From positions 1-16,673 of the forward strand of contig JAWCPB010000026.1 of the NCBI GenBank assembly GCA_038870455.1: a DNA stretch of 16,673 nucleotides, given 5' to 3'. This DNA comes from Candidatus Micrarchaeia archaeon (lineage in GTDB: Archaea > Micrarchaeota > Micrarchaeia > Burarchaeales > JACRGF01). Of this stretch, positions 1,295-12,273 are shown in pieces (the first letter of the stretch is position 1; each line of letters opens with the position of its first letter). A program made the translations under genes and the position numbers. The notes under the pieces are model-generated. The model had not been told where the DNA came from. It was given only the letters and a program-made list of their open reading frames with translations, and searched no databases.

Positions 1295-2254
1295 TCACTC
1301 CAGCTCGATTGTGCCGGGAGGCTTGTTGGTGATGTCGTAAAGCACCCGGCCGACTTCCCTGACTTCGTTTGTGATGCGCGTGGAAATGCGCTCCAAGACG
1401 TCTGCCGGGAGTTTGCTGAAGTTCGCGGTCATGCCGTCAAGCGAGCGCACTGCCCTGACCACTACCGTGTATTGGTAAGCGCGCTCGTCGCCCCTCACGC
1501 CGACAGTCCTCGCCGGGAGAAGCGCGGCGAAGTACTGCCAAGGCCGCTCTATCTCGCCTTTTCGGGCAGCCGCCTCGAGCTCTTCCTCGACGATCCTGCA
1601 GGCTCTGCGGACGACTGCAACGCGCTCGCGCGTGACCTCGCCCACCACCCGGACAGCGAGGCCGGGGCCGGGGAAGGGCTGGCGCTCGCTGACAGCCGGG
1701 GGAAGGCCCAACGCACGGGCGACCTCCCTCACCTCGTGCTTGTAGAGGTCGCGCAGGGGCTCCACGAGACGGAGCTTCATTCCCCCCGGCAGGCCGGCCA
1801 CGTTATGGTGGCTTTTTATCCTCTGCGTGCCAGCGCCCACTCCGCTCTCAATCCAGTCCGGCGCGAGCGTGCCCTGCAGGAGGAAGGTGGCTTTAACCTC
1901 CCGCGCGACTTCCTCGAAAATGCGGATGAAAAGCTCGCCGATGATTTTCCTCTTCTGCTCGGGCTCCTCCACGCCCTTGAGCGCGGTGAAAAAGCGCTCG
2001 CTTGCCTCAATGTGCCTGAGGTTGATGCCCGCTTTTTTCGCTATTTCCCTCACTTGCTTGCTCTCGCCTTCGCGCATGAGGCCCGTGTCGACGAACACGG
2101 CGGTGAAGCTCTTGCCCAGCGCGCGCGCGGCGAGCACGGCGGTCACGGTGCTGTCCACGCCGCCGGAGAGCGCGATGACGGCGTGCCCTCCGCCCACTTC
2201 TTTCTTTATTTGCTCAACTGCGCGCTCGGCGAATTTCTTGGCGTCGAAAGGCAT
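1295..2254 (-). CDS. guaAB: GMP synthase, ATP pyrophosphatase subunit B
   Basis: ALSGGVDS PP-loop, DTGLMR, IKSHHNV, RQPFPGPGLAVR and C-terminal YDITNKPPGTIELE. Start set at ATG 2254 (MPFDAKKF). Confidence 0.95.
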   Translation of the reverse strand: MPFDAKKFAERAVEQIKKEVGGGHAVIALSGGVDSTVTAVLAARALGKSFTAVFVDTGLMREGESKQVREIAKKAGINLRHIEASERFFTALKGVEEPEQKRKIIGELFIRIFEEVAREVKATFLLQGTLAPDWIESGVGAGTQRIKSHHNVAGLPGGMKLRLVEPLRDLYKHEVREVARALGLPPAVSERQPFPGPGLAVRVVGEVTRERVAVVRRACRIVEEELEAAARKGEIERPWQYFAALLPARTVGVRGDERAYQYTVVVRAVRSLDGMTANFSKLPADVLERISTRITNEVREVGRVLYDITNKPPGTIELE

Positions 2255-2318
2255 GGTTTTACTTTGGCGCAAAGGCTTTAAAGCGCTGGCTTCAAAAGCT
2301 AGCAAAACGGGTGGGGGA

Positions 2319-3446
2319 TTGATTTCGGGGAAGGAAATTCAAGAGGTTATCCGAAGGCACAGGTATTCCAGGCCCTGCATCGCGACCCTCGGCTCCCACT
2401 CCGCGCTGGATATCTGCTTGGGGGCAAAGAAGGAAGGCCTGAAAACCATTGTCGTTTGCCAGAAGGGAAGGGAAGAGACTTACGCGAGGTTCTACAAGTC
2501 GGACGGCAAGGCGGGCGTAGTGGATGAAGTCATCGTGCTCGACAGGTTTGCCGACGTTGTCAAGGATGAGGTGCAGGAAAAGCTGAGGAGGGCGCAGGCG
2601 GTGTTCGTGCCCCACAGGTCTTTCGAAGTTTATGTGGGCTTCGACAGGATTGAGAACGATTTTCTAGTGCCGCTTTTCGGCAACCGCGCGCTGTTGAGGG
2701 CTGAAGAGCGCGACGCACCGCGCAACCAGTATTTCCTGCTCGAGAAAGCCGGCATCCGCACGCCCAAGCGGTTCGCCTCGCCGAAGGACATTGACAGAAC
2801 CGTGATCGTCAAGGTCGCGGAGGCCAAAAGAACTTACGAGCGTGCTTTCTTTTTCGCCCACGACCTCGAGGACTATACGAGGGAAAGCACCCAGCTGATT
2901 GCGAAAGGAGTTATCACGAAAGAGGGGCTGGAGAAGGCTGTTATCGAAGAAGTCGTGTGCGGGGCGCAGTGCAATTTCAACTTCTTCCACTCGCCTCTCA
3001 CAGGCAGGCTTGAATTGCTCGGGACTGACGTGAGAAGGCAGACAAACCTAGACGGCGTGTTACGGCTGCCAGCGGACGAGCAGCTGGAGCTGCTGAAGCG
3101 CATCAGGCTGACAACCATCGAGGCAGGCCATGTGGCAGTCACCTTACGCGAGTCGCTTCTCGAGAGCGTCCTGAAGATGGGCGAGGCGTTTGCGAAAGCA
3201 TCCAAAGAAGAGTATCCCCCGGGAGTCATAGGGCCATTCGCGCTGCAGGGCGCGCTCGTGCCAGAGGAGGGGAGGGAAGAGCCCGTGGTGTTTGATGTGA
3301 GCCTCCGCATGCCGGGCTCGCCGGGAACGCGCTTCACGCCGTACAGCGAGTACCTGCACGGGGAGAGCATGAGCGTCGGCCAAAGGGTGGCGAGGGAAAT
3401 AAAGCAGGCGGCAAGGCAAGGAAGGATAGAGAAAGTGGTGACATGA
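2319..3446 (+). CDS. purP: PurP-family ATP-grasp protein (FAICAR synthetase-like), paralogue 1
   Basis: IATLGSHSALDI, FVPHRSF, LFGNR, GPFALQG, DVSLRMPGSPG and GQRVAREIK motifs. Likely TTG start at 2319 after GGTGGGGGA; the ORF track's upstream extension is antisense to guaAB. Confidence 0.88.
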   Translation: MISGKEIQEVIRRHRYSRPCIATLGSHSALDICLGAKKEGLKTIVVCQKGREETYARFYKSDGKAGVVDEVIVLDRFADVVKDEVQEKLRRAQAVFVPHRSFEVYVGFDRIENDFLVPLFGNRALLRAEERDAPRNQYFLLEKAGIRTPKRFASPKDIDRTVIVKVAEAKRTYERAFFFAHDLEDYTRESTQLIAKGVITKEGLEKAVIEEVVCGAQCNFNFFHSPLTGRLELLGTDVRRQTNLDGVLRLPADEQLELLKRIRLTTIEAGHVAVTLRESLLESVLKMGEAFAKASKEEYPPGVIGPFALQGALVPEEGREEPVVFDVSLRMPGSPGTRFTPYSEYLHGESMSVGQRVAREIKQAARQGRIEKVVT

Positions 3447-4519
3447 TCAAAAAAGAGGAGATAGAGCTCATCCTCAAGAAATACGACAGGAAGAAGTTGC
3501 GCATAGCCACGCTGTGCTCCCACTCCTCGCTCCAGATTTTCAACGGTGCGTGGGAGGAAGGGTTCAGGACAATCGGCATTCGTGTGGGCGAAAACCGTGT
3601 CACCTATGATGCATTTCCATACGCCAAGCCCGACATGTTCATCACTGTTGAGGAGTTCAGGGATGTGGAAAGATTCCAGGAGCTTCTCATTGAGCACAAC
3701 GCCATTCTCGTGCCGCACGGCTCGCTCATTGAATTCGTGGGGAGGAGGATAGAGGAGCTGGCAGTACCAATTCTCGGAAACAGAAAGGCCTTGTTATGGG
3801 AGAACGACAGACAGAAGATGATTAAGTGGATGCAGAAAGCAGGCCTCAGGATTCCAAAGACGCTCGAGCCGGGCAAAATAGACAGACCCTGCATTGTCAA
3901 ATTTCCGGGCGCAAAAGGCGGGCGGGGGTATGTGGTTGTGAAGAACGAGGCTGAGTTCGAGCGAAAGATGCGCGAGAGGGGCATAACTGATGAGATGCTG
4001 GCCAAATCAGTCATACAGGAGTACATTGTCGGCATACGCTTCTATCCCCACTACTTCTACTCGCTGTTCCACGACGATGGATTCCGCGTGGGCGAAGGGC
4101 GGCTTGAGCTGCTTGGCATGGACCAGAGGGTAGAAGATAATATAGATGAGATTTACAGGGCGAACACTTTCGGCTATTCGCCGGAACCGCAATTCACAGT
4201 AGTCGGCAATGCCCCAATTGTCGCGCGTGAGTCGCTGCTGGACCAGCTGCTGACCATAGGGCAGAAGACTGTCGATGCGAGCATCGAGCTGTTCGGAGGC
4301 ATTCCGGGCCCATTCTGTGTGGAGACCACGTGCACTGAGAACCTCGAGTTCTATGTATTCGAAATATCCTCGCGTATCGTGGCCGGCACAAATCTCTTCC
4401 CCCGTGGCTCAACCTATTCGTGGTTCACCTTCAACGAGCCAATGAGCATGGGCAGGAGGATTGCGCGCGAGATAAAAATTGCGGCGAAGAAAAACGCGCT
4501 GGAAAAGCTCGTCTACTAG
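3443..4519 (+). CDS. purP: 5-formaminoimidazole-4-carboxamide ribonucleotide synthetase (PurP), paralogue 2
   Basis: IATLCSHSSLQI, VPHGS, GAKGGRGY, GPFCVET, FEISSRIVAGTN and MSMGRRIAREIK motifs. ATGA overlap with the upstream paralogue. Confidence 0.92.
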   Translation: MIKKEEIELILKKYDRKKLRIATLCSHSSLQIFNGAWEEGFRTIGIRVGENRVTYDAFPYAKPDMFITVEEFRDVERFQELLIEHNAILVPHGSLIEFVGRRIEELAVPILGNRKALLWENDRQKMIKWMQKAGLRIPKTLEPGKIDRPCIVKFPGAKGGRGYVVVKNEAEFERKMRERGITDEMLAKSVIQEYIVGIRFYPHYFYSLFHDDGFRVGEGRLELLGMDQRVEDNIDEIYRANTFGYSPEPQFTVVGNAPIVARESLLDQLLTIGQKTVDASIELFGGIPGPFCVETTCTENLEFYVFEISSRIVAGTNLFPRGSTYSWFTFNEPMSMGRRIAREIKIAAKKNALEKLVY

Positions 4520-4768: not shown

Positions 4769-6169
4769 TTATCTTTTCCGGTGCAGCAAGAGCCAGGCAA
4801 GCGCGGCGAGTGCAGCGCTCGCCACCACCCACGCGCGCCAGTCAAAACCGCTTTTCTTCCGCCTTTCGGGGATGTAGCTCGATGGCAGGCCTGCGGGCGC
4901 GGGCTGGCCGGCAGACAGGGCGGACTCGAGCGTCGCAAGGGCATTCTCCACCGCGTCGAGCTCGGAAGAGCTGGCGGCTTTGTCGAAATCATGTATTATG
5001 AGAAGGAGAGTTGCGTTGAGTTCGGTTGCGTTTTCACCGAGCGAGGCACGTGCCGCGAGCGCATCGCGCACAGCAGCAATGCGCGCCTCTACTGCGGCCA
5101 GGCGCTGGAGGAGGGCGTCTGCGGCTTGCGTGGCGTTCGCGTAGAGCAGAGCGAAGTCGACAAAAGCCTGGTCAGAGGCATCGAACGCATGCTGTCTGCA
5201 CGAGCCGTCAATTTTGTCGGCGGCCTGCTCGAGCTGGTCGGTGAAGTTTCGGATTTCGGAAAATCTCTGAAGTTGAGCGAAGCGCGTGGCAAAGGCAGAG
5301 ATGTTGGCTATTGCGGCTTCTGTGTTGTTGGCGCAGGCCAGCAGGCGCGCCCGCCAGCCCTCCCTCCTTTCAGTTTCGGCATAGACCTGCGCGCTCACGT
5401 TTTCGGGCGCGAGAATGAGAAGGAGCTTTGTCCGAGCCAGCCCAACCTCCTGCTCGGCTTCGGCGAGCGCGGAATAGTTGAATGCTGATAGAGGACAGAA
5501 GTAATAGCCGGCGGTAAGAAAGAGTGGATTGAGCGAGATGTTCAGCGCGAGCGCGCGCAGGGAGGCGAGGGAGGAGAGCGCGCGCTCAAGCTGACGGGAA
5601 GCGGGCGTTGTGGCGTTGGGGAGGTTACGGATGGCATCGAGCGCGGCATTGAGCTCCGCATCCATGGCCGCGAGCGCGAGCGAGTAATCCACGATGGTGT
5701 GAACGAAAGGCTGGCCGGCGTCGAGCGCGAGCCCACGACAGATTGGCGTGTAGCAGGAAAGCAGGCAGGCATCGAAGTCGCTGCAGGGATACCTGTCTAT
5801 GCCGATGAGCCGCCGGCACTCGCTCTCGGCGGGCTCGCGCGAGGCATTGAAGGCCAGCAGAAGGGCGGCGAGGCGCGCGGACTGCGCGGGCGCGGGAAGG
5901 ACGAGCGAAGGCGAGAGGTTGGCAGTGTGCGAGTAGGCAGACAGGCGCGCGCGAATTTCGCTTTCCGCTGTGACGAGCGATGCGTTCCCTCCCGCATCCG
6001 TAACTGCGATGAACGAGGGAACGCCGTTGATGAGAACGAGAGAGGCGTTGTCATCGAGGAAAAGCGCCTGCGCGCTCTCGTTGAAGTCCAAGTAGCCGCT
6101 GATGAGCACGTCGGGGGAAACCGCGTGCGCCGCCAAGGCGAGAAGTAAGAGCGCGGCGATAGGGCGCAT
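4769..6169 (-). CDS. Secreted, C-terminally membrane-anchored protein with Cys-rich motif and helical/coiled-coil stalk
   Basis: N-terminal signal peptide (MRPIAALLLLALAAHA), Cys cluster CRRLIGIDRYPCSDFDACLLSCYTPIC, several N-x-S/T sequons, and a C-terminal hydrophobic helix followed by HRKR. Confidence 0.8.
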   Translation of the reverse strand: MRPIAALLLLALAAHAVSPDVLISGYLDFNESAQALFLDDNASLVLINGVPSFIAVTDAGGNASLVTAESEIRARLSAYSHTANLSPSLVLPAPAQSARLAALLLAFNASREPAESECRRLIGIDRYPCSDFDACLLSCYTPICRGLALDAGQPFVHTIVDYSLALAAMDAELNAALDAIRNLPNATTPASRQLERALSSLASLRALALNISLNPLFLTAGYYFCPLSAFNYSALAEAEQEVGLARTKLLLILAPENVSAQVYAETERREGWRARLLACANNTEAAIANISAFATRFAQLQRFSEIRNFTDQLEQAADKIDGSCRQHAFDASDQAFVDFALLYANATQAADALLQRLAAVEARIAAVRDALAARASLGENATELNATLLLIIHDFDKAASSSELDAVENALATLESALSAGQPAPAGLPSSYIPERRKKSGFDWRAWVVASAALAALAWLLLHRKR

Positions 6170-9123: not shown

Positions 9124-9390
9124 ATGGTGTTGAGCGCTACAGTGACCGAAAACATGACCCTTGCAGTGCTGTACACACTGCTGGGAGGAATTCTGGGAAT
9201 CTTTTTGATAGGCATTGCGACCTTCATCGTGCCGAAGATAGTGGACAGGCTCACTCCGAGAATAAACGACGAGAGAGAGCTCGCGCGGGGAAACCTTGCA
9301 GTGGCAAGTTATGTGGGGCAGATAACGCAGGCAGTTATATTGGGGATAAGCATAATCATCGCAGCTGCGATAATATCCGGAATATTCTGA
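9124..9390 (+). CDS. DUF350-family (YjfL-like) small membrane protein
   Basis: Two hydrophobic helices flanking DRLTPRINDERELARGNLAVA, matching the family LTP..D..E...GN.AVA pattern. Good SD. Confidence 0.8.
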   Translation: MVLSATVTENMTLAVLYTLLGGILGIFLIGIATFIVPKIVDRLTPRINDERELARGNLAVASYVGQITQAVILGISIIIAAAIISGIF

Positions 9391-9402: not shown

Positions 9403-12273
9403 ATGCTCCGGCCCGGCGTTTTGCAACGCCTTTTTCTCATCCTCGCACTCTCGTCCCTGGCAGCGGCAAGAGGAGGCGGCGGGTGCTTCCTGCCGGACAC
9501 GCTCGTGCTGACAACAAGCGGGGAAAAGCCCATCAAATCGGTTTCTGCTGGAGAAGAGGTTGTCACGCCGGATGGGATCGCGCGCGTCGTTGTGCTGTAT
9601 GCCACTAACGCATCAAAATACTACGAGATAACCACTGCGACCACATCGGTGAATGTGACCGGAGAGCACCTCTTGTACATAGGGGACGGCAGGTTTAAGG
9701 AGGCGGCAAAGCTCGCGGCAGGCGACACAGTGGTGGTCTATTCCAACAACACTGCCGAGCTTGACCGCGTTGTTTCCATTGTTCCACACAAAAAAGAGAC
9801 TGAAGCGTACAACCTGCTTGTGGACAGCAAGGGCATTTTCCTCGCGAATTCCATCATCGCGCACAACAAGGGCTCTTTCCTGCCGGACACGCTCGTGCTG
9901 ACAGCTGACGGCTCGTGGAAGAGGATAAGCGAGGTGAAGCCGGGTGACGTGCTGAAGGCTTTCACTTACGAGGGCGAGGTGATCAACGCGAGCGTGATCG
10001 AAGTGTATACGGCGAGCGCGCGTGAGTATTACGTAATCAGGACGGAGAGCTATGAGGTGAACGTCACTGCAGAGCACCCGTTTTACTTGGGCGACGGCGT
10101 GTTCGTGACTGCCGAGCGGCTGGAGCCCGGCGACAGAATATTCGTTTTCAATGGAAGCGGCCTCTCTCCGGAGAGAGTTGTTTCAAAGGAGACGGTGCTT
10201 GCGAACGTAACAACGTACAACCCGAGGACGGAATGGCCGAACACGTATTTCGCAAACTTCATCGCGGTGCACAACAAGGGCGGCGGGTGTTTTGCAGCAG
10301 GGACACGGATAGCTACGCCTGAGGGCGAGCGGCACATTGAGGCGGTAAAGGCGGGGGACATGGTGACCGCGGTGGCGCCTGACGGCTCTGTGAAAAAGGC
10401 GGTTGTGCGCGGCGTGTTCACGACCAGAACGCGCATGCTCCAGCTCCGCACGGAAAGAAGAGCGGTAAACACGACAGCCGAGCATCCTTTCCTCACTCCG
10501 GGCGGGAGTTTTAAGGAGGCGTCTGAGCTTTCTGCCGGCGATGTGGTGATGGTGATTGGCGAGAACGGAGAATTGCGGGAGGAGAGGATAGTTTCCGCAA
10601 CCTATCTTGGGGAGGAGCGTGTGTATAATTTGGAGATTGAGGAGCCGTTCACGTTTATTGCAAACGGTTTTGTTGTGCACAACAAGGGAGGCGGAGGAGG
10701 CAGCGGAAGCACGCCTTACACGCACGCGACGATGTGCGGCCTGCCCACGCGCCTGAGGTTGACCAACGGCTCTTACGCGAACGGAACCCAGTGCATCTAC
10801 GTGTATTTCCTGAAAACCAACATAAACAGCGCGCGTACGCTTGAAAACTGCGTGAAGGCAACACAGGAGGCATGGCGCTGTGCAAACCTAACCAATTTTG
10901 CAATATCGAGGGAGCTTCGGTTCGAATGCGCGACGCGCGAGGAGTGCCTGGGCTACAGCGAGATGAATGTATCCGGAATCGGAATGGTGAAAATCGTCGT
11001 GCCCCCTTCGCTGGAGGAGCAACTTTGTGGGATGGCCATTTCGCTACTGATGTTCGGAGTAGTGACGTGCGGCCTTTTCTGGATAATACGCCGGAAAAGC
11101 CGCCTAAGCGCAGACCTCGATTATTGTTATCCCTCTTCGCAAGTGGATGCAAAGGCAGCCAAAACCGCAAAGCTCTTGGCTTACCTCAAAAGCATAGACC
11201 CGCGGTGGGATCCCGATGAGCTGAAGAGGATCGCGAGAACTACTTTTTTCAAACTTCAAGAGTGCTGGCAATCGCGCGAGTACGCCCCCATGCAGCCGTT
11301 GCTCATGCCTAACCTCTATGCGCAGCACGTCAGCCAGCTTGAATCGCTTAAGAGGAACCACGAGATAAACAAGCTGGATGACCTCCAGTTGAGGAAGCTG
11401 GAAATCGTGCACCTCAGGCACTATGCAAAGAAAGACCAGCAAGAGTTCACCGTCCTTGTGGAAGCGAGCGCGAGGGACTACTACGTGGATGACAGAGATG
11501 GAAGGTTCTTGAGGGGCGACTCCAAGCCAGTGGTTTTCCAAGAATTCTGGGTATTCCAGAGGCAGGGAAACAACTGGCTTTTGCGGGAAATAAATCAGAC
11601 GCGCGAGTCGGATGCGCTCGCTGAAGAAAATTTTGTGGAGGAGCTGACGCCCTGGCAGCTGAAAAACATTTACGGTGCGCTCGCGGCACCCCCCATTGAA
11701 AAAGCGCCTTGGCTCGATGAGGCGCTTAGAAAAAAGGCGGACAGGGTTCACCGCATGCTGAATTTTCTTTCCTCTACGGACAAGAGCTGGGACGAGGATT
11801 TCATGAAAATGCGCGCGAGAGAAATTTTCGTGCGCGTGCTCACAGCATTCGAAAAAAGGGATCTGACTGCCGTCGAGCCTTTCCTACTGCCCGAAGCCGC
11901 TTCGCATTTCCGTAGCCAGATTGATGCAATGAAGAAGGAGAACAGAAAGGTGGAGTACAGGAATATGTGCGTGAGGAAAGTCGACATCGTCCTCGTCAAG
12001 AACTACAACGACAGGGATAGGGATGAGTTCACCGCGCGCATAAGCGCGCATGCGCAGAGAATAGAGTACAAAGGGGAAAAAATTACGAGGAAAGACGAGT
12101 ACGTCACCCCCTGGGAGGAATACTGGAGTTTCAGGAAACAAAACGGGGAGTGGATGTTGGTTGAGGTTGTCCCGCCAGCGCGCACGCGCTCAATAATCGA
12201 AGAAGAGAATATCGATGAAGAGGCTGCGAAAGGACAAGTGCAGTGGTACTACACGAAAGACAGGGCGCTGTAG
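9403..12273 (+). CDS. Membrane protein: signal peptide, 3 tandem Hint (intein-like/BIL) domains, Cys-rich ectodomain, TM helix and 2 Tim44-like domains
   Basis: Three C/S-F..(G/D)T starts, three TxEH block-B motifs and three HN ends. TM helix at ~11029-11088. Duplicated WD..(E/D)...AR..F...Q/T...R...EFT...A...E(F/Y)W.F.(R/K)...W.L Tim44-like units. Confidence 0.9.
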   Translation: MLRPGVLQRLFLILALSSLAAARGGGGCFLPDTLVLTTSGEKPIKSVSAGEEVVTPDGIARVVVLYATNASKYYEITTATTSVNVTGEHLLYIGDGRFKEAAKLAAGDTVVVYSNNTAELDRVVSIVPHKKETEAYNLLVDSKGIFLANSIIAHNKGSFLPDTLVLTADGSWKRISEVKPGDVLKAFTYEGEVINASVIEVYTASAREYYVIRTESYEVNVTAEHPFYLGDGVFVTAERLEPGDRIFVFNGSGLSPERVVSKETVLANVTTYNPRTEWPNTYFANFIAVHNKGGGCFAAGTRIATPEGERHIEAVKAGDMVTAVAPDGSVKKAVVRGVFTTRTRMLQLRTERRAVNTTAEHPFLTPGGSFKEASELSAGDVVMVIGENGELREERIVSATYLGEERVYNLEIEEPFTFIANGFVVHNKGGGGGSGSTPYTHATMCGLPTRLRLTNGSYANGTQCIYVYFLKTNINSARTLENCVKATQEAWRCANLTNFAISRELRFECATREECLGYSEMNVSGIGMVKIVVPPSLEEQLCGMAISLLMFGVVTCGLFWIIRRKSRLSADLDYCYPSSQVDAKAAKTAKLLAYLKSIDPRWDPDELKRIARTTFFKLQECWQSREYAPMQPLLMPNLYAQHVSQLESLKRNHEINKLDDLQLRKLEIVHLRHYAKKDQQEFTVLVEASARDYYVDDRDGRFLRGDSKPVVFQEFWVFQRQGNNWLLREINQTRESDALAEENFVEELTPWQLKNIYGALAAPPIEKAPWLDEALRKKADRVHRMLNFLSSTDKSWDEDFMKMRAREIFVRVLTAFEKRDLTAVEPFLLPEAASHFRSQIDAMKKENRKVEYRNMCVRKVDIVLVKNYNDRDRDEFTARISAHAQRIEYKGEKITRKDEYVTPWEEYWSFRKQNGEWMLVEVVPPARTRSIIEEENIDEEAAKGQVQWYYTKDRAL
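9484..9867 (+). other. Hint domain 1 (128 aa, CFLPDT...TGEH...YNL...AHN)
   Basis: Cys1, TxxH block B and terminal His-Asn; next residue is Lys. No endonuclease insert. Confidence 0.9.
9874..10275 (+). other. Hint domain 2 (134 aa, SFLPDT...TAEH...YNP...VHN)
   Basis: Ser1, TAEHPF and terminal His-Asn; next residue is Lys. Confidence 0.88.
10288..10683 (+). other. Hint domain 3 (132 aa, CFAAGT...TAEH...VYNL...VHN)
   Basis: Cys1, TAEHPF, VYNLEI and terminal His-Asn; next residue is Lys. Confidence 0.92.

Follow-up and report, generated by a model that had tools for sequence, protein, structure and literature searches.

The window analyzed here, i.e., a stretch of 16,673 nucleotides from a Candidatus Micrarchaeia archaeon, harbors on its forward strand a gene (9403..12273) coding for a protein of 956 amino acids (aa), in which, according to the list of open reading frames (ORFs), the translation, and Pfam, a signal peptide is followed by three Hint modules, a Cys-rich stretch, a membrane helix, and two Tim44-like domains; its own genome (about 1.04 Mb) has a single copy of this gene. 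All of its features lie on the same strand. The predicted signal peptide (aa 1-22, 9403..9468) was recognized by eye from its basic n-region, its hydrophobic core, and its A-x-A end, and closes with AAA; in the homologues, W-A/G is found at the end of the signal peptide, before RGGGG. The following region (9469-10710), which corresponds exactly to residues 23-436 and runs from RGGGG through KGGGGGSGS, embeds the three Hints and their flanks, as read from the translation. The N-extein RGGGG (aa 23-27, 9469..9483) precedes Hint1 (aa 28-155, 9484..9867), where the translation and the alignment reveal Cys1 (C28), a block B of the form TGEH, and a C-terminal HN. The linker KG (aa 156-157, 9868..9873) connects it to Hint2 (aa 158-291, 9874..10275), which starts with a Ser (S158) instead of a Cys, contains TAEH, ends with HN, and is placed by the tree in the beta type (xFLP...AVHN). 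The linker KGGG (aa 292-295, 10276..10287) leads in turn to Hint3 (aa 296-427, 10288..10683; Cys1 at C296, TAEH, HN), which belongs to the gamma type in the same tree and is followed by the C-flank KGGGGGSGS (aa 428-436, 10684..10710). Before and between the Hints, the exteins are composed of R, G, and K only, and each Hint has a Gly before it and a Lys-Gly after it; this pattern of micro-exteins had been pointed out by an earlier sequence-only reading of this DNA and was confirmed by the translation of 9403-12270.

Downstream of the Hints, the homologues exhibit KGG and then a low-complexity stretch rich in Gly, Ser, and Arg. In the window protein, translation and locus comparison revealed instead a Cys-rich and sequon-rich stretch (about aa 437-540, 10711..11022), with Cys residues at positions 445, 464, 483, 493, 509, and 515 and four N-x-S/T sequons, a glycosylation-type insert assigned to no family, which is found in archaeal members only (the loci L032 and L033) and replaces the Gly/Ser/Arg-rich tail of the bacterial loci. 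A membrane helix was predicted by eye at about aa 541-562 (11023..11088), immediately followed by RRKSR. The membership of the remaining part in the Tim44-like family is given by Pfam (PF04280, E 3.1e-35, with 121.9 bits where the cut-off is 29.6), which reports two stretches: the best one defines the first domain (aa 589-732, 11167..11598), and the second domain has approximate limits only (about aa 785-945, 11755..12237), the two-domain profile (alignment A1) reaching the end of the protein. As for the topology, the part before the membrane helix contains 12 N-x-S/T sequons, eight of which fall within the Hints, and the part after it contains one. This distribution, the signal peptide, and the basic residues that follow the helix lead us to infer that the Hints are exported and face the outside of the cell, with the Tim44-like part in the cytoplasm.

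The first 430 residues were matched by the Pfam families Hint, PT-HINT, Intein_splicing, and Hint_2 with E-values from 1e-17 to 1e-20; five Hint-type families scored above their cut-offs, including the Hint module PF01079 (E 4.9e-20). The AlphaFold2 model of Hint3 with its flanks adopts the HINT fold (mean predicted local distance difference test score, pLDDT, 93.4), and a Foldseek search with this model retrieved, with a probability of 1.00 and template modeling (TM) scores of 0.77-0.88, mini-inteins, the bacterial-intein-like (BIL) domain of Clostridium thermocellum (2LWY), the Tetrahymena BIL2 (6Y75), and, lower, Hedgehog. In agreement with this, the best sequence match in the PDB was the C. 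thermocellum BIL (5.6e-10), followed by the Mtu RecA and Npu DnaB mini-inteins, and weak matches to the Tetrahymena BIL2 (6TMM/6Y75) had E-values of 0.004-0.006. Type-A BILs are described as possessing the intein-like C-terminal His-Asn, which sets them apart from type B, and as devoid of a nucleophile at position +1 (PMC4031507; PMC7664689). The window modules correspond to this description: their first residue is Cys or Ser (C28, S158, and C296); block B is Thr-x-x-His, whose T and H are shared by at least 90% of the 422 family Hints that were aligned; all three end with His-Asn; and, in place of a Cys, Ser, or Thr at +1, a Lys occupies each of the three junctions, as it does every junction examined in the family. 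On their residues, the Hint modules are thus type-A BIL domains with intact catalytic residues.

The comparison with the best-known members of the HINT superfamily sharpens this assignment. With the C. thermocellum BIL (2LWY), the window modules share a small HINT fold without endonuclease, Cys1, T-x-x-H, His-Asn, and the absence of Cys, Ser, or Thr at +1, as well as a V-Y-N in the strand leading to the C-terminal H-N, where Mtu RecA has Y-D; like other type-A BILs, they are located in an exported, variable protein region. The window family differs from those BILs in its constant Lys at +1 and Gly at +2, its tandem arrays of one to six modules in a fixed order of types, its exteins that are Gly/Lys linkers only, and its host, a Tim44-like membrane protein paired with a DUF350 protein. 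The canonical class 1 mini-inteins (Npu DnaB, Mtu RecA) have the same fold (TM up to 0.88), Cys1, T-x-x-H, and His-Asn; however, they carry a Cys, Ser, or Thr at +1 where the window family has Lys, and they are inserted into housekeeping enzymes at a conserved site, whereas the window Hints are exported and lie in a low-complexity, Gly-rich leader, the position within the Gly run varying among family members. Without a Cys, Ser, or Thr at +1, the branched ester intermediate cannot form, and modules of 128-134 residues leave no room for a homing endonuclease.

Other relatives share single aspects of this organization. The cleavage-site motif of Hedgehog is Gly|Cys-Phe. The G|CF of the window family matches it, in addition to the PF01079 hit and the Foldseek matches to 1AT0 and 6TYY; moreover, Hedgehog proteins are secreted, and their thioester serves something besides canonical splicing. 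Nevertheless, the Hog domain lacks a C-terminal His-Asn and carries a sterol-recognition tail, whereas the window modules end with His-Asn without any added tail, keep both junctions intact, and give no indication of a lipid acceptor. In the BUBL1 protein of Tetrahymena thermophila, BIL2 (6Y75, 6TMM) is likewise part of a tandem array and is a good fold match (query-normalized TM score, TMq, 0.84); it is, however, eukaryotic and cytoplasmic, has folded ubiquitin-like cargo, and uses an attacking Lys situated inside the next ubiquitin-like domain (PMC8616854), whereas the window family combines unstructured linkers, a Lys at +1, and an extracellular setting. The window flanks (RGGGG, KG, KGGG, and KGGGGGSGS) are not ubiquitin-like domains, and Pfam gave no ubiquitin-like hit. 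A functional parallel is represented by the RTX self-processing "clip-and-link" reaction, in which an extracytoplasmic autocatalytic cleavage is followed by isopeptide bonding between the new carboxyl end and a Lys; fold and chemistry are unrelated, the cut being Ca2+-dependent, at an Asp-Pro bond, and without a thioester (PMC7078468). We found in the literature no published description of a Hint/Tim44-like family and, similarly, no relevant one linking Tim44-like and DUF350 proteins.

Since the three Hints of one protein are paralogues, their matching flanks are not independent evidence, and a family-wide test is needed. Three sets of homologues, which overlap in part so that their counts are not additive, were used. 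The first derives from a whole-protein search in which 8000 candidates were scored and 643 homologous clusters were found. The best 120 of these clusters were analyzed; all of them combine Hint and Tim44 Pfam domains, except for one partial entry without Tim44, and a hidden Markov model built from the three window Hints detected 422 full Hints (16 partial ones were set aside). The second was obtained by scanning species-representative genomes with the Tim44x2 part only (alignment A1), which yielded 201 relatives; the best 80 loci were analyzed, and 77 of them contain 198 full Hints. The third comes from a profile search of 1.84 billion representatives at 50% identity, with 2809 clusters reaching E<=0.001 and 210 reaching E<=1e-30; among the best 150 clusters examined, 68 carry Hints (137 full ones).

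In the first set, the Gly at -1, the His-Asn, the Lys at +1, and the Gly at +2 are each present in 422/422 Hints, the first residue being Cys in 420 and Ser in two; in the second, all four flank features occur in 198/198 Hints (first residue Cys in 197, Ser in one); and in the third, Lys at +1, Gly at +2, and His-Asn are each found in 137/137, with Gly at -1 in 135 cases and Ser in two. The conservation of G|C and HN|K across homologues, which the sequence-only reading had put forward as its own check, was thus borne out in all three sets, and the flanks are, by these alignments, the most conserved feature of a large family. The codons of the junctions vary synonymously (AAG in 121 and AAA in 77 cases for Lys, all four codons for Gly, and both codons for His, Asn, and Cys), so that the invariance of the flanks reflects selection at the protein level and not gene conversion or a conserved DNA site. 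In addition, Arg never replaces Lys at the Hint junctions, even though Lys and Arg codons are one base apart. As a control, we considered another 18 Hint/intein genes from the same archaeal class (one of them from the unpublished genome G086), where position +1 is occupied by Cys (10), Ser (4), Thr (3), or Val (1), and never by Lys.

The short sequences around the modules are also constrained. In the loci set, RGGGG precedes the first Hint in 62 of the 68 ORFs (RAGGG in two of them), all 121 inter-Hint linkers consist of K followed by one to seven G, and KG links alpha to beta, i.e., precedes a beta-type Hint (starting with CFL or SFL), in 59 of 63 cases. Regarding the Ser1 of Hint2, its codon (TCT, 9874-9876) is one base away from TGT, and the two Ser1 modules among the 422 Hints of the first set belong to the window protein and to P0009, which is 65% identical to it and has two Hints, so that the Ser1 change is retained in at least two lineages.

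When the Hints are removed on paper, the flanks give RGGGG-KG-KGGG-KGGGGGSGS, a sequence resembling the leaders of Hint-less relatives. An Arg-Gly leader of this kind in Hint-less Tim44-like proteins had been mentioned in the sequence-only reading, and it does exist in gammaproteobacterial loci, in the class of G122, and in two-Tim44 relatives. In the gammaproteobacterial Hint-less loci, the signal peptide is followed by (K/R)(K/R)-x-G-G-G in 13 of 16 cases (the other three being a GG variant, a locus without leader, and one that could not be resolved); after GGG comes K (4), R (4), A (2), or G, and then S-x-G. In the class of G122, many members of which bear Hints, A|R-x-G-G-G-R-S-x-G-S-R-G-S-R-S was found in 12 of 14 single-domain genes, one of the other two leaders being a variant and one unreadable; the position matching the Lys is occupied by Arg in 12 of the 12 readable ones. 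The complete Hint-less two-Tim44 relatives (P0287, P0336, P0280, P0271, and P0293), which occur only among the more distant representatives, have A|RGG and then a Gly/Ser-rich stretch, with G or S, and no Lys, after RGGGG. The window protein, with its A|RGGGG and its membrane helix before the Tim44-like domain, shares this Arg/Gly leader architecture, which is an empirical criterion and not a curated one. Furthermore, in some family members of the third set, a Hint lies deeper in the Gly run and is still followed by K-G. Since the Hint-less leaders have Arg, Gly, or Ser at the Lys position and the deeper Hints keep their K-G, the Lys at +1 and the Gly at +2 are part of the module and not of the leader. 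A "pre-spliced" allele (signal peptide, RGGGG, K-G..., no Hint) was found neither in 96 shorter homologues nor in the 80 best species loci; similarly, no Hint-less orthologue turned up in the 81 genomes of the family of the only cultured carrier, where the search matched nothing but the carrier and a single-domain Tim44 protein. In a distinct group, short Tim44-like proteins (P0317, P0323, P0327, P0333, P0335, P0338, P0340, P0343, P0345, P0347, P0348, and P0352) exhibit a different conserved leader after the signal peptide, A-Q-A-G-R-Y/F-I/V-P ..., followed by a Gly run and a membrane helix.

The history of the array can be read from a phylogenetic tree of the 422 Hints (FastTree, midpoint root), in which the modules group by their position and not by the protein they belong to: an alpha clade comprises modules at position 1 (102), a beta clade (CFLP...AVHN) those at position 2 (137), and a gamma clade those at positions 3-4 (175). 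Hint1 of the window falls in a small clade of seven position-1 Hints, Hint2 in the beta clade, and Hint3 in the gamma clade. The sequence-only reading had considered that the Hints might have been inserted repeatedly at one G|K site; this idea does not agree with position-specific clades that are ancient across phyla, nor with a Lys that belongs to the module. The copy number ranges from one to six per protein, and none of the 80 closest species loci (the best 80 of 201) is devoid of Hints: the loci L078, L081, L097, L104, and L141, which seemed Hint-less or low-copy, have further Hints in a neighboring frame. These split arrays come from bacterial metagenome-assembled genomes and could represent either assembly errors in repeats or real pseudogenes. 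The Hint part of the window protein is 46-52% identical to its bacterial homologues, a conservation similar to that of the Tim44 part (44-52%). On the basis of these comparisons, the array is an ancient one kept by its host and not a set of mobile inteins. Lastly, Hint1-KG-Hint2 (aa 23-294, 9469-10284) was predicted as a single packed two-domain unit (pLDDT 91.5, predicted TM score, pTM, 0.88); in such a unit, the C-terminal junction of one module would adjoin the N-terminal junction of the next, and the two Hint active sites would lie side by side.

How might these modules work? The reading that we favor, with a confidence that stops a little short of even, is that type-A modules cleave and that the linkers are afterwards rejoined through the alpha- or the epsilon-amine of the +1 Lys. 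After Sec export, the Gly(-1)-Cys1 bond would shift to a thioester in each module (N-S acyl shift), an N-O shift giving an oxoester on Ser1 in the case of Hint2; the C-terminal Asn would cyclize, cutting the Asn|Lys bond, and the amine of the +1 Lys would attack the unhindered Gly (thio)ester. The attacking group might be either the freed alpha-amine, as proposed for type-A BILs, or the epsilon-amine, as in the Tetrahymena BIL2. The Hints would be excised outside the cell and released as free domains, and the Gly/Lys linkers, rejoined by peptide or isopeptide bonds, would form a short Arg/Gly/Lys leader like that of the Hint-less relatives. The Lys appears as the favored nucleophile because it occupies the position of the intein nucleophile, because it is invariant and never replaced by Arg, and because it is flanked by the unhindered Gly residues at -1 and +2. 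In ligation chemistry, Gly thioesters are the fastest. A more specific version, which we regard as rather unlikely, is that the Lys epsilon-amine attacks the Gly thioester directly, with a stable isopeptide as the branched intermediate and the cyclization of Asn freeing the Hint, which would represent a further splicing class. In this version, the backbone of the leader would run through Lys side chains and leave free alpha-amines, and an ATP-independent Gly-Lys linkage would be formed outside the cell in both bacteria and archaea, the tandem modules possibly acting as a relay.

Some precedents exist for these steps. For type-A BILs, a route has been proposed in which the thioester forms, Asn cyclizes, and the freed amine attacks the thioester (PMC4031507, PMC7664689), and the BIL2 of BUBL is reported to form, without ATP, an isopeptide between a Lys epsilon-amine and the C-terminus of the preceding ubiquitin-like domain (PMC8616854). 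That a Lys amine might capture a Gly thioester, as advanced by the sequence-only reading, has an actual parallel in the latter system; the other half of that suggestion, namely the tagging of other surface molecules with RGGGG or KG, was not supported and would be an expensive design.

Several points weigh against cleavage followed by rejoining. Every chemical step of it is deduced from residues. Oxoesters react with amines far less readily than thioesters do, so that the Ser1 oxoester would react poorly and at least the Hint2 junction may only be hydrolyzed. At neutral pH, the epsilon-amine of Lys is largely in its protonated form, and its reach exceeds that of the Cys or Ser side chain for which the active site evolved. 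The invariance of the Lys could serve the cyclization of Asn or a later recognition step, the rejoining of linkers that hold no folded extein brings no obvious benefit, and the reason why one to six modules of about 130 residues are kept is not explained. In addition, the characterized type-A BILs, which are able to splice, yield cleavage products that outweigh the spliced ones (PMC4031507, PMC7664689).

This last observation leads to an alternative according to which the (thio)ester is just hydrolyzed, the Asn|Lys bond is cut, and the array is shed as Hints plus tiny peptides, leaving a mature protein that starts with Lys-Gly-Gly; the Lys would be kept because it speeds up the cyclization of Asn or because an N-terminal Lys is needed. 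We deem this alternative unlikely but worth serious consideration, since it is in agreement not only with the predominance of cleavage products reported for the characterized BILs (PMC4031507, PMC7664689), but also with the tolerated Ser1 (window Hint2 and P0009), which fits hydrolysis better than aminolysis, and with the length of the linkers after most Hints, which varies freely from KGG to K+7G as if they were discarded. However, it explains neither the joint invariance of the Gly at -1, the Lys at +1, and the Gly at +2, nor the fact that Arg, common in Hint-less leaders, never takes the place of Lys, nor the likeness of the rejoined linkers to those leaders. The (thio)ester might also be transferred to an outside acceptor (an amine or another nucleophile, such as a Lys at the surface, the head group of a lipid, or a polyamine), thus tagging or cross-linking envelope components. 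BIL2 is reported to join ubl4 both to ubl5 and to a Ras GTPase (PMC8616854), the Hedgehog thioester is used for cholesterol modification (PMC7664689), and the occurrence of DUF350 elsewhere in operons with polyamine-metabolism genes (PMC11237479) gives a loose hint in the same direction. Still, the groups transferred would be only RGGGG, KG, and KGGG, i.e., a small tag at a high cost, and no acceptor is indicated by any of our results; since an invariant candidate nucleophile is available in cis at +1, an intramolecular acceptor is preferred, and we consider the transfer to an outside one improbable.

Alternatively, the Hints might be selfish or neutral mini-inteins that repeatedly entered a G|K hot spot in a permissive Gly-rich leader and splice cleanly. 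A low-complexity and probably unstructured leader, a copy number ranging from one to six, and the existence of Hint-less relatives functioning without the modules are in line with this; nonetheless, the modules have, with their 128-134 residues, no homing endonuclease and lack the Cys, Ser, or Thr at +1 that canonical splicing needs and that true inteins of the same archaeal class possess. Moreover, their clades are position-specific and ancient across phyla, their conservation equals that of the Tim44 part, and no Hint-less locus exists among the 80 closest, even though in-frame loss within a Gly run should be easy, so that this explanation appears very improbable to us. We give almost no credence to the idea that the Hint folds are never cleaved and act as stable ectodomain, binding, or spacer modules: the confident prediction of Hint1-KG-Hint2 as a packed unit would suit such a role, but the catalytic residues of both junction reactions are invariant, which is unexpected for structural elements.

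The purpose of BIL domains has been an open question since they were described, and the characterized ones mostly only cleave. The family described here provides hundreds of natural sequences in which the Gly at -1, the Lys at +1, and the Gly at +2 are fixed, the rest of the module being approximately 35-60% identical, and this fixed pattern makes the Lys the prime candidate for the residue resolving the thioester. If cleavage and amine-mediated rejoining do take place, protein splicing chemistry would be extended to an amine nucleophile, and a compact, ATP-free Gly-Lys ligation module working outside the cytoplasm, of use in protein engineering, would be available; if the modules only cleave, they would represent a neat but ordinary new BIL subfamily. 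In either case, the family connects Hint processing with an unstudied prokaryotic Tim44-like/DUF350 membrane module, which has likely crossed between bacteria and DPANN archaea.

Concerning the genomic context, a gene coding for a DUF350 (YjfL-family) membrane protein of 88 aa (9124..9390, forward strand; Pfam PF03994, E 4.1e-06) precedes the Hint-Tim44 gene by 12 nt. The same arrangement, with DUF350 directly upstream and on the same strand, was detected in 65 of the 69 related loci having at least 300 nt of upstream sequence, across bacterial phyla; in the remaining four, a frameshifted Hint array lies between DUF350 and the Tim44 gene. Around 16 Tim44 genes from Hint-less gammaproteobacterial loci, no DUF350 gene was seen within about 1.5 kb, these flanks being too short to establish its absence. 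The prediction of a complex between DUF350 and the membrane-helix region (alignments A4 and A5) scored 0.00, which gave no answer and is evidence neither way. DUF350 (YjfL family) proteins have been described in PspA/polyamine operons (PMC11237479).

The distribution of the gene is patchy. True orthologues were found in four of the 121 genomes of the window's class (G000, G012, G006, and G063), where 21 other matches are weak and correspond to other Hints, in 19 of the 301 genomes of the class of G122, and in one of the 81 genomes of the family of the cultured carrier. Among the 80 best loci, that of this carrier, Legionella saoudiensis strain LS-1 (L091; two Hints, with DUF350 upstream), is the only one from a cultured organism. 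The loci considered with respect to transfer are the window gene (9403-12273), L032, L033, L036, and L048. When the Tim44 part is placed in a quick, unrooted tree, the sequences from Micrarchaeia make up a single clade adjoining two Planctomycetota (Shimodaira-Hasegawa-like approximate likelihood ratio test, SH-aLRT, 96). A transfer between bacteria and DPANN archaea is likely in the light of these sequences, and the patchy presence in archaea versus the broad one in bacteria suggests that it may have proceeded from bacteria to archaea.

The other genes of the window are archaeal in type and include, according to Pfam, two PurP paralogues, a split GMP synthase, a glutamine synthetase, a CorA-like protein, and a threonine-synthase-like pyridoxal phosphate (PLP) enzyme. 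Between the PurP and the glutamine synthetase genes, on the reverse strand (4769-6169), lies an ORF of 466 aa with no Pfam match at E<=0.01. The two PurP-type genes (DUF1246/DUF1297 ATP-grasp) are adjacent on the forward strand (1827-4519); the first of them, 539 aa long as listed, overlaps the GMP synthase gene on the opposite strand, which suggests that its true start is probably located further downstream.

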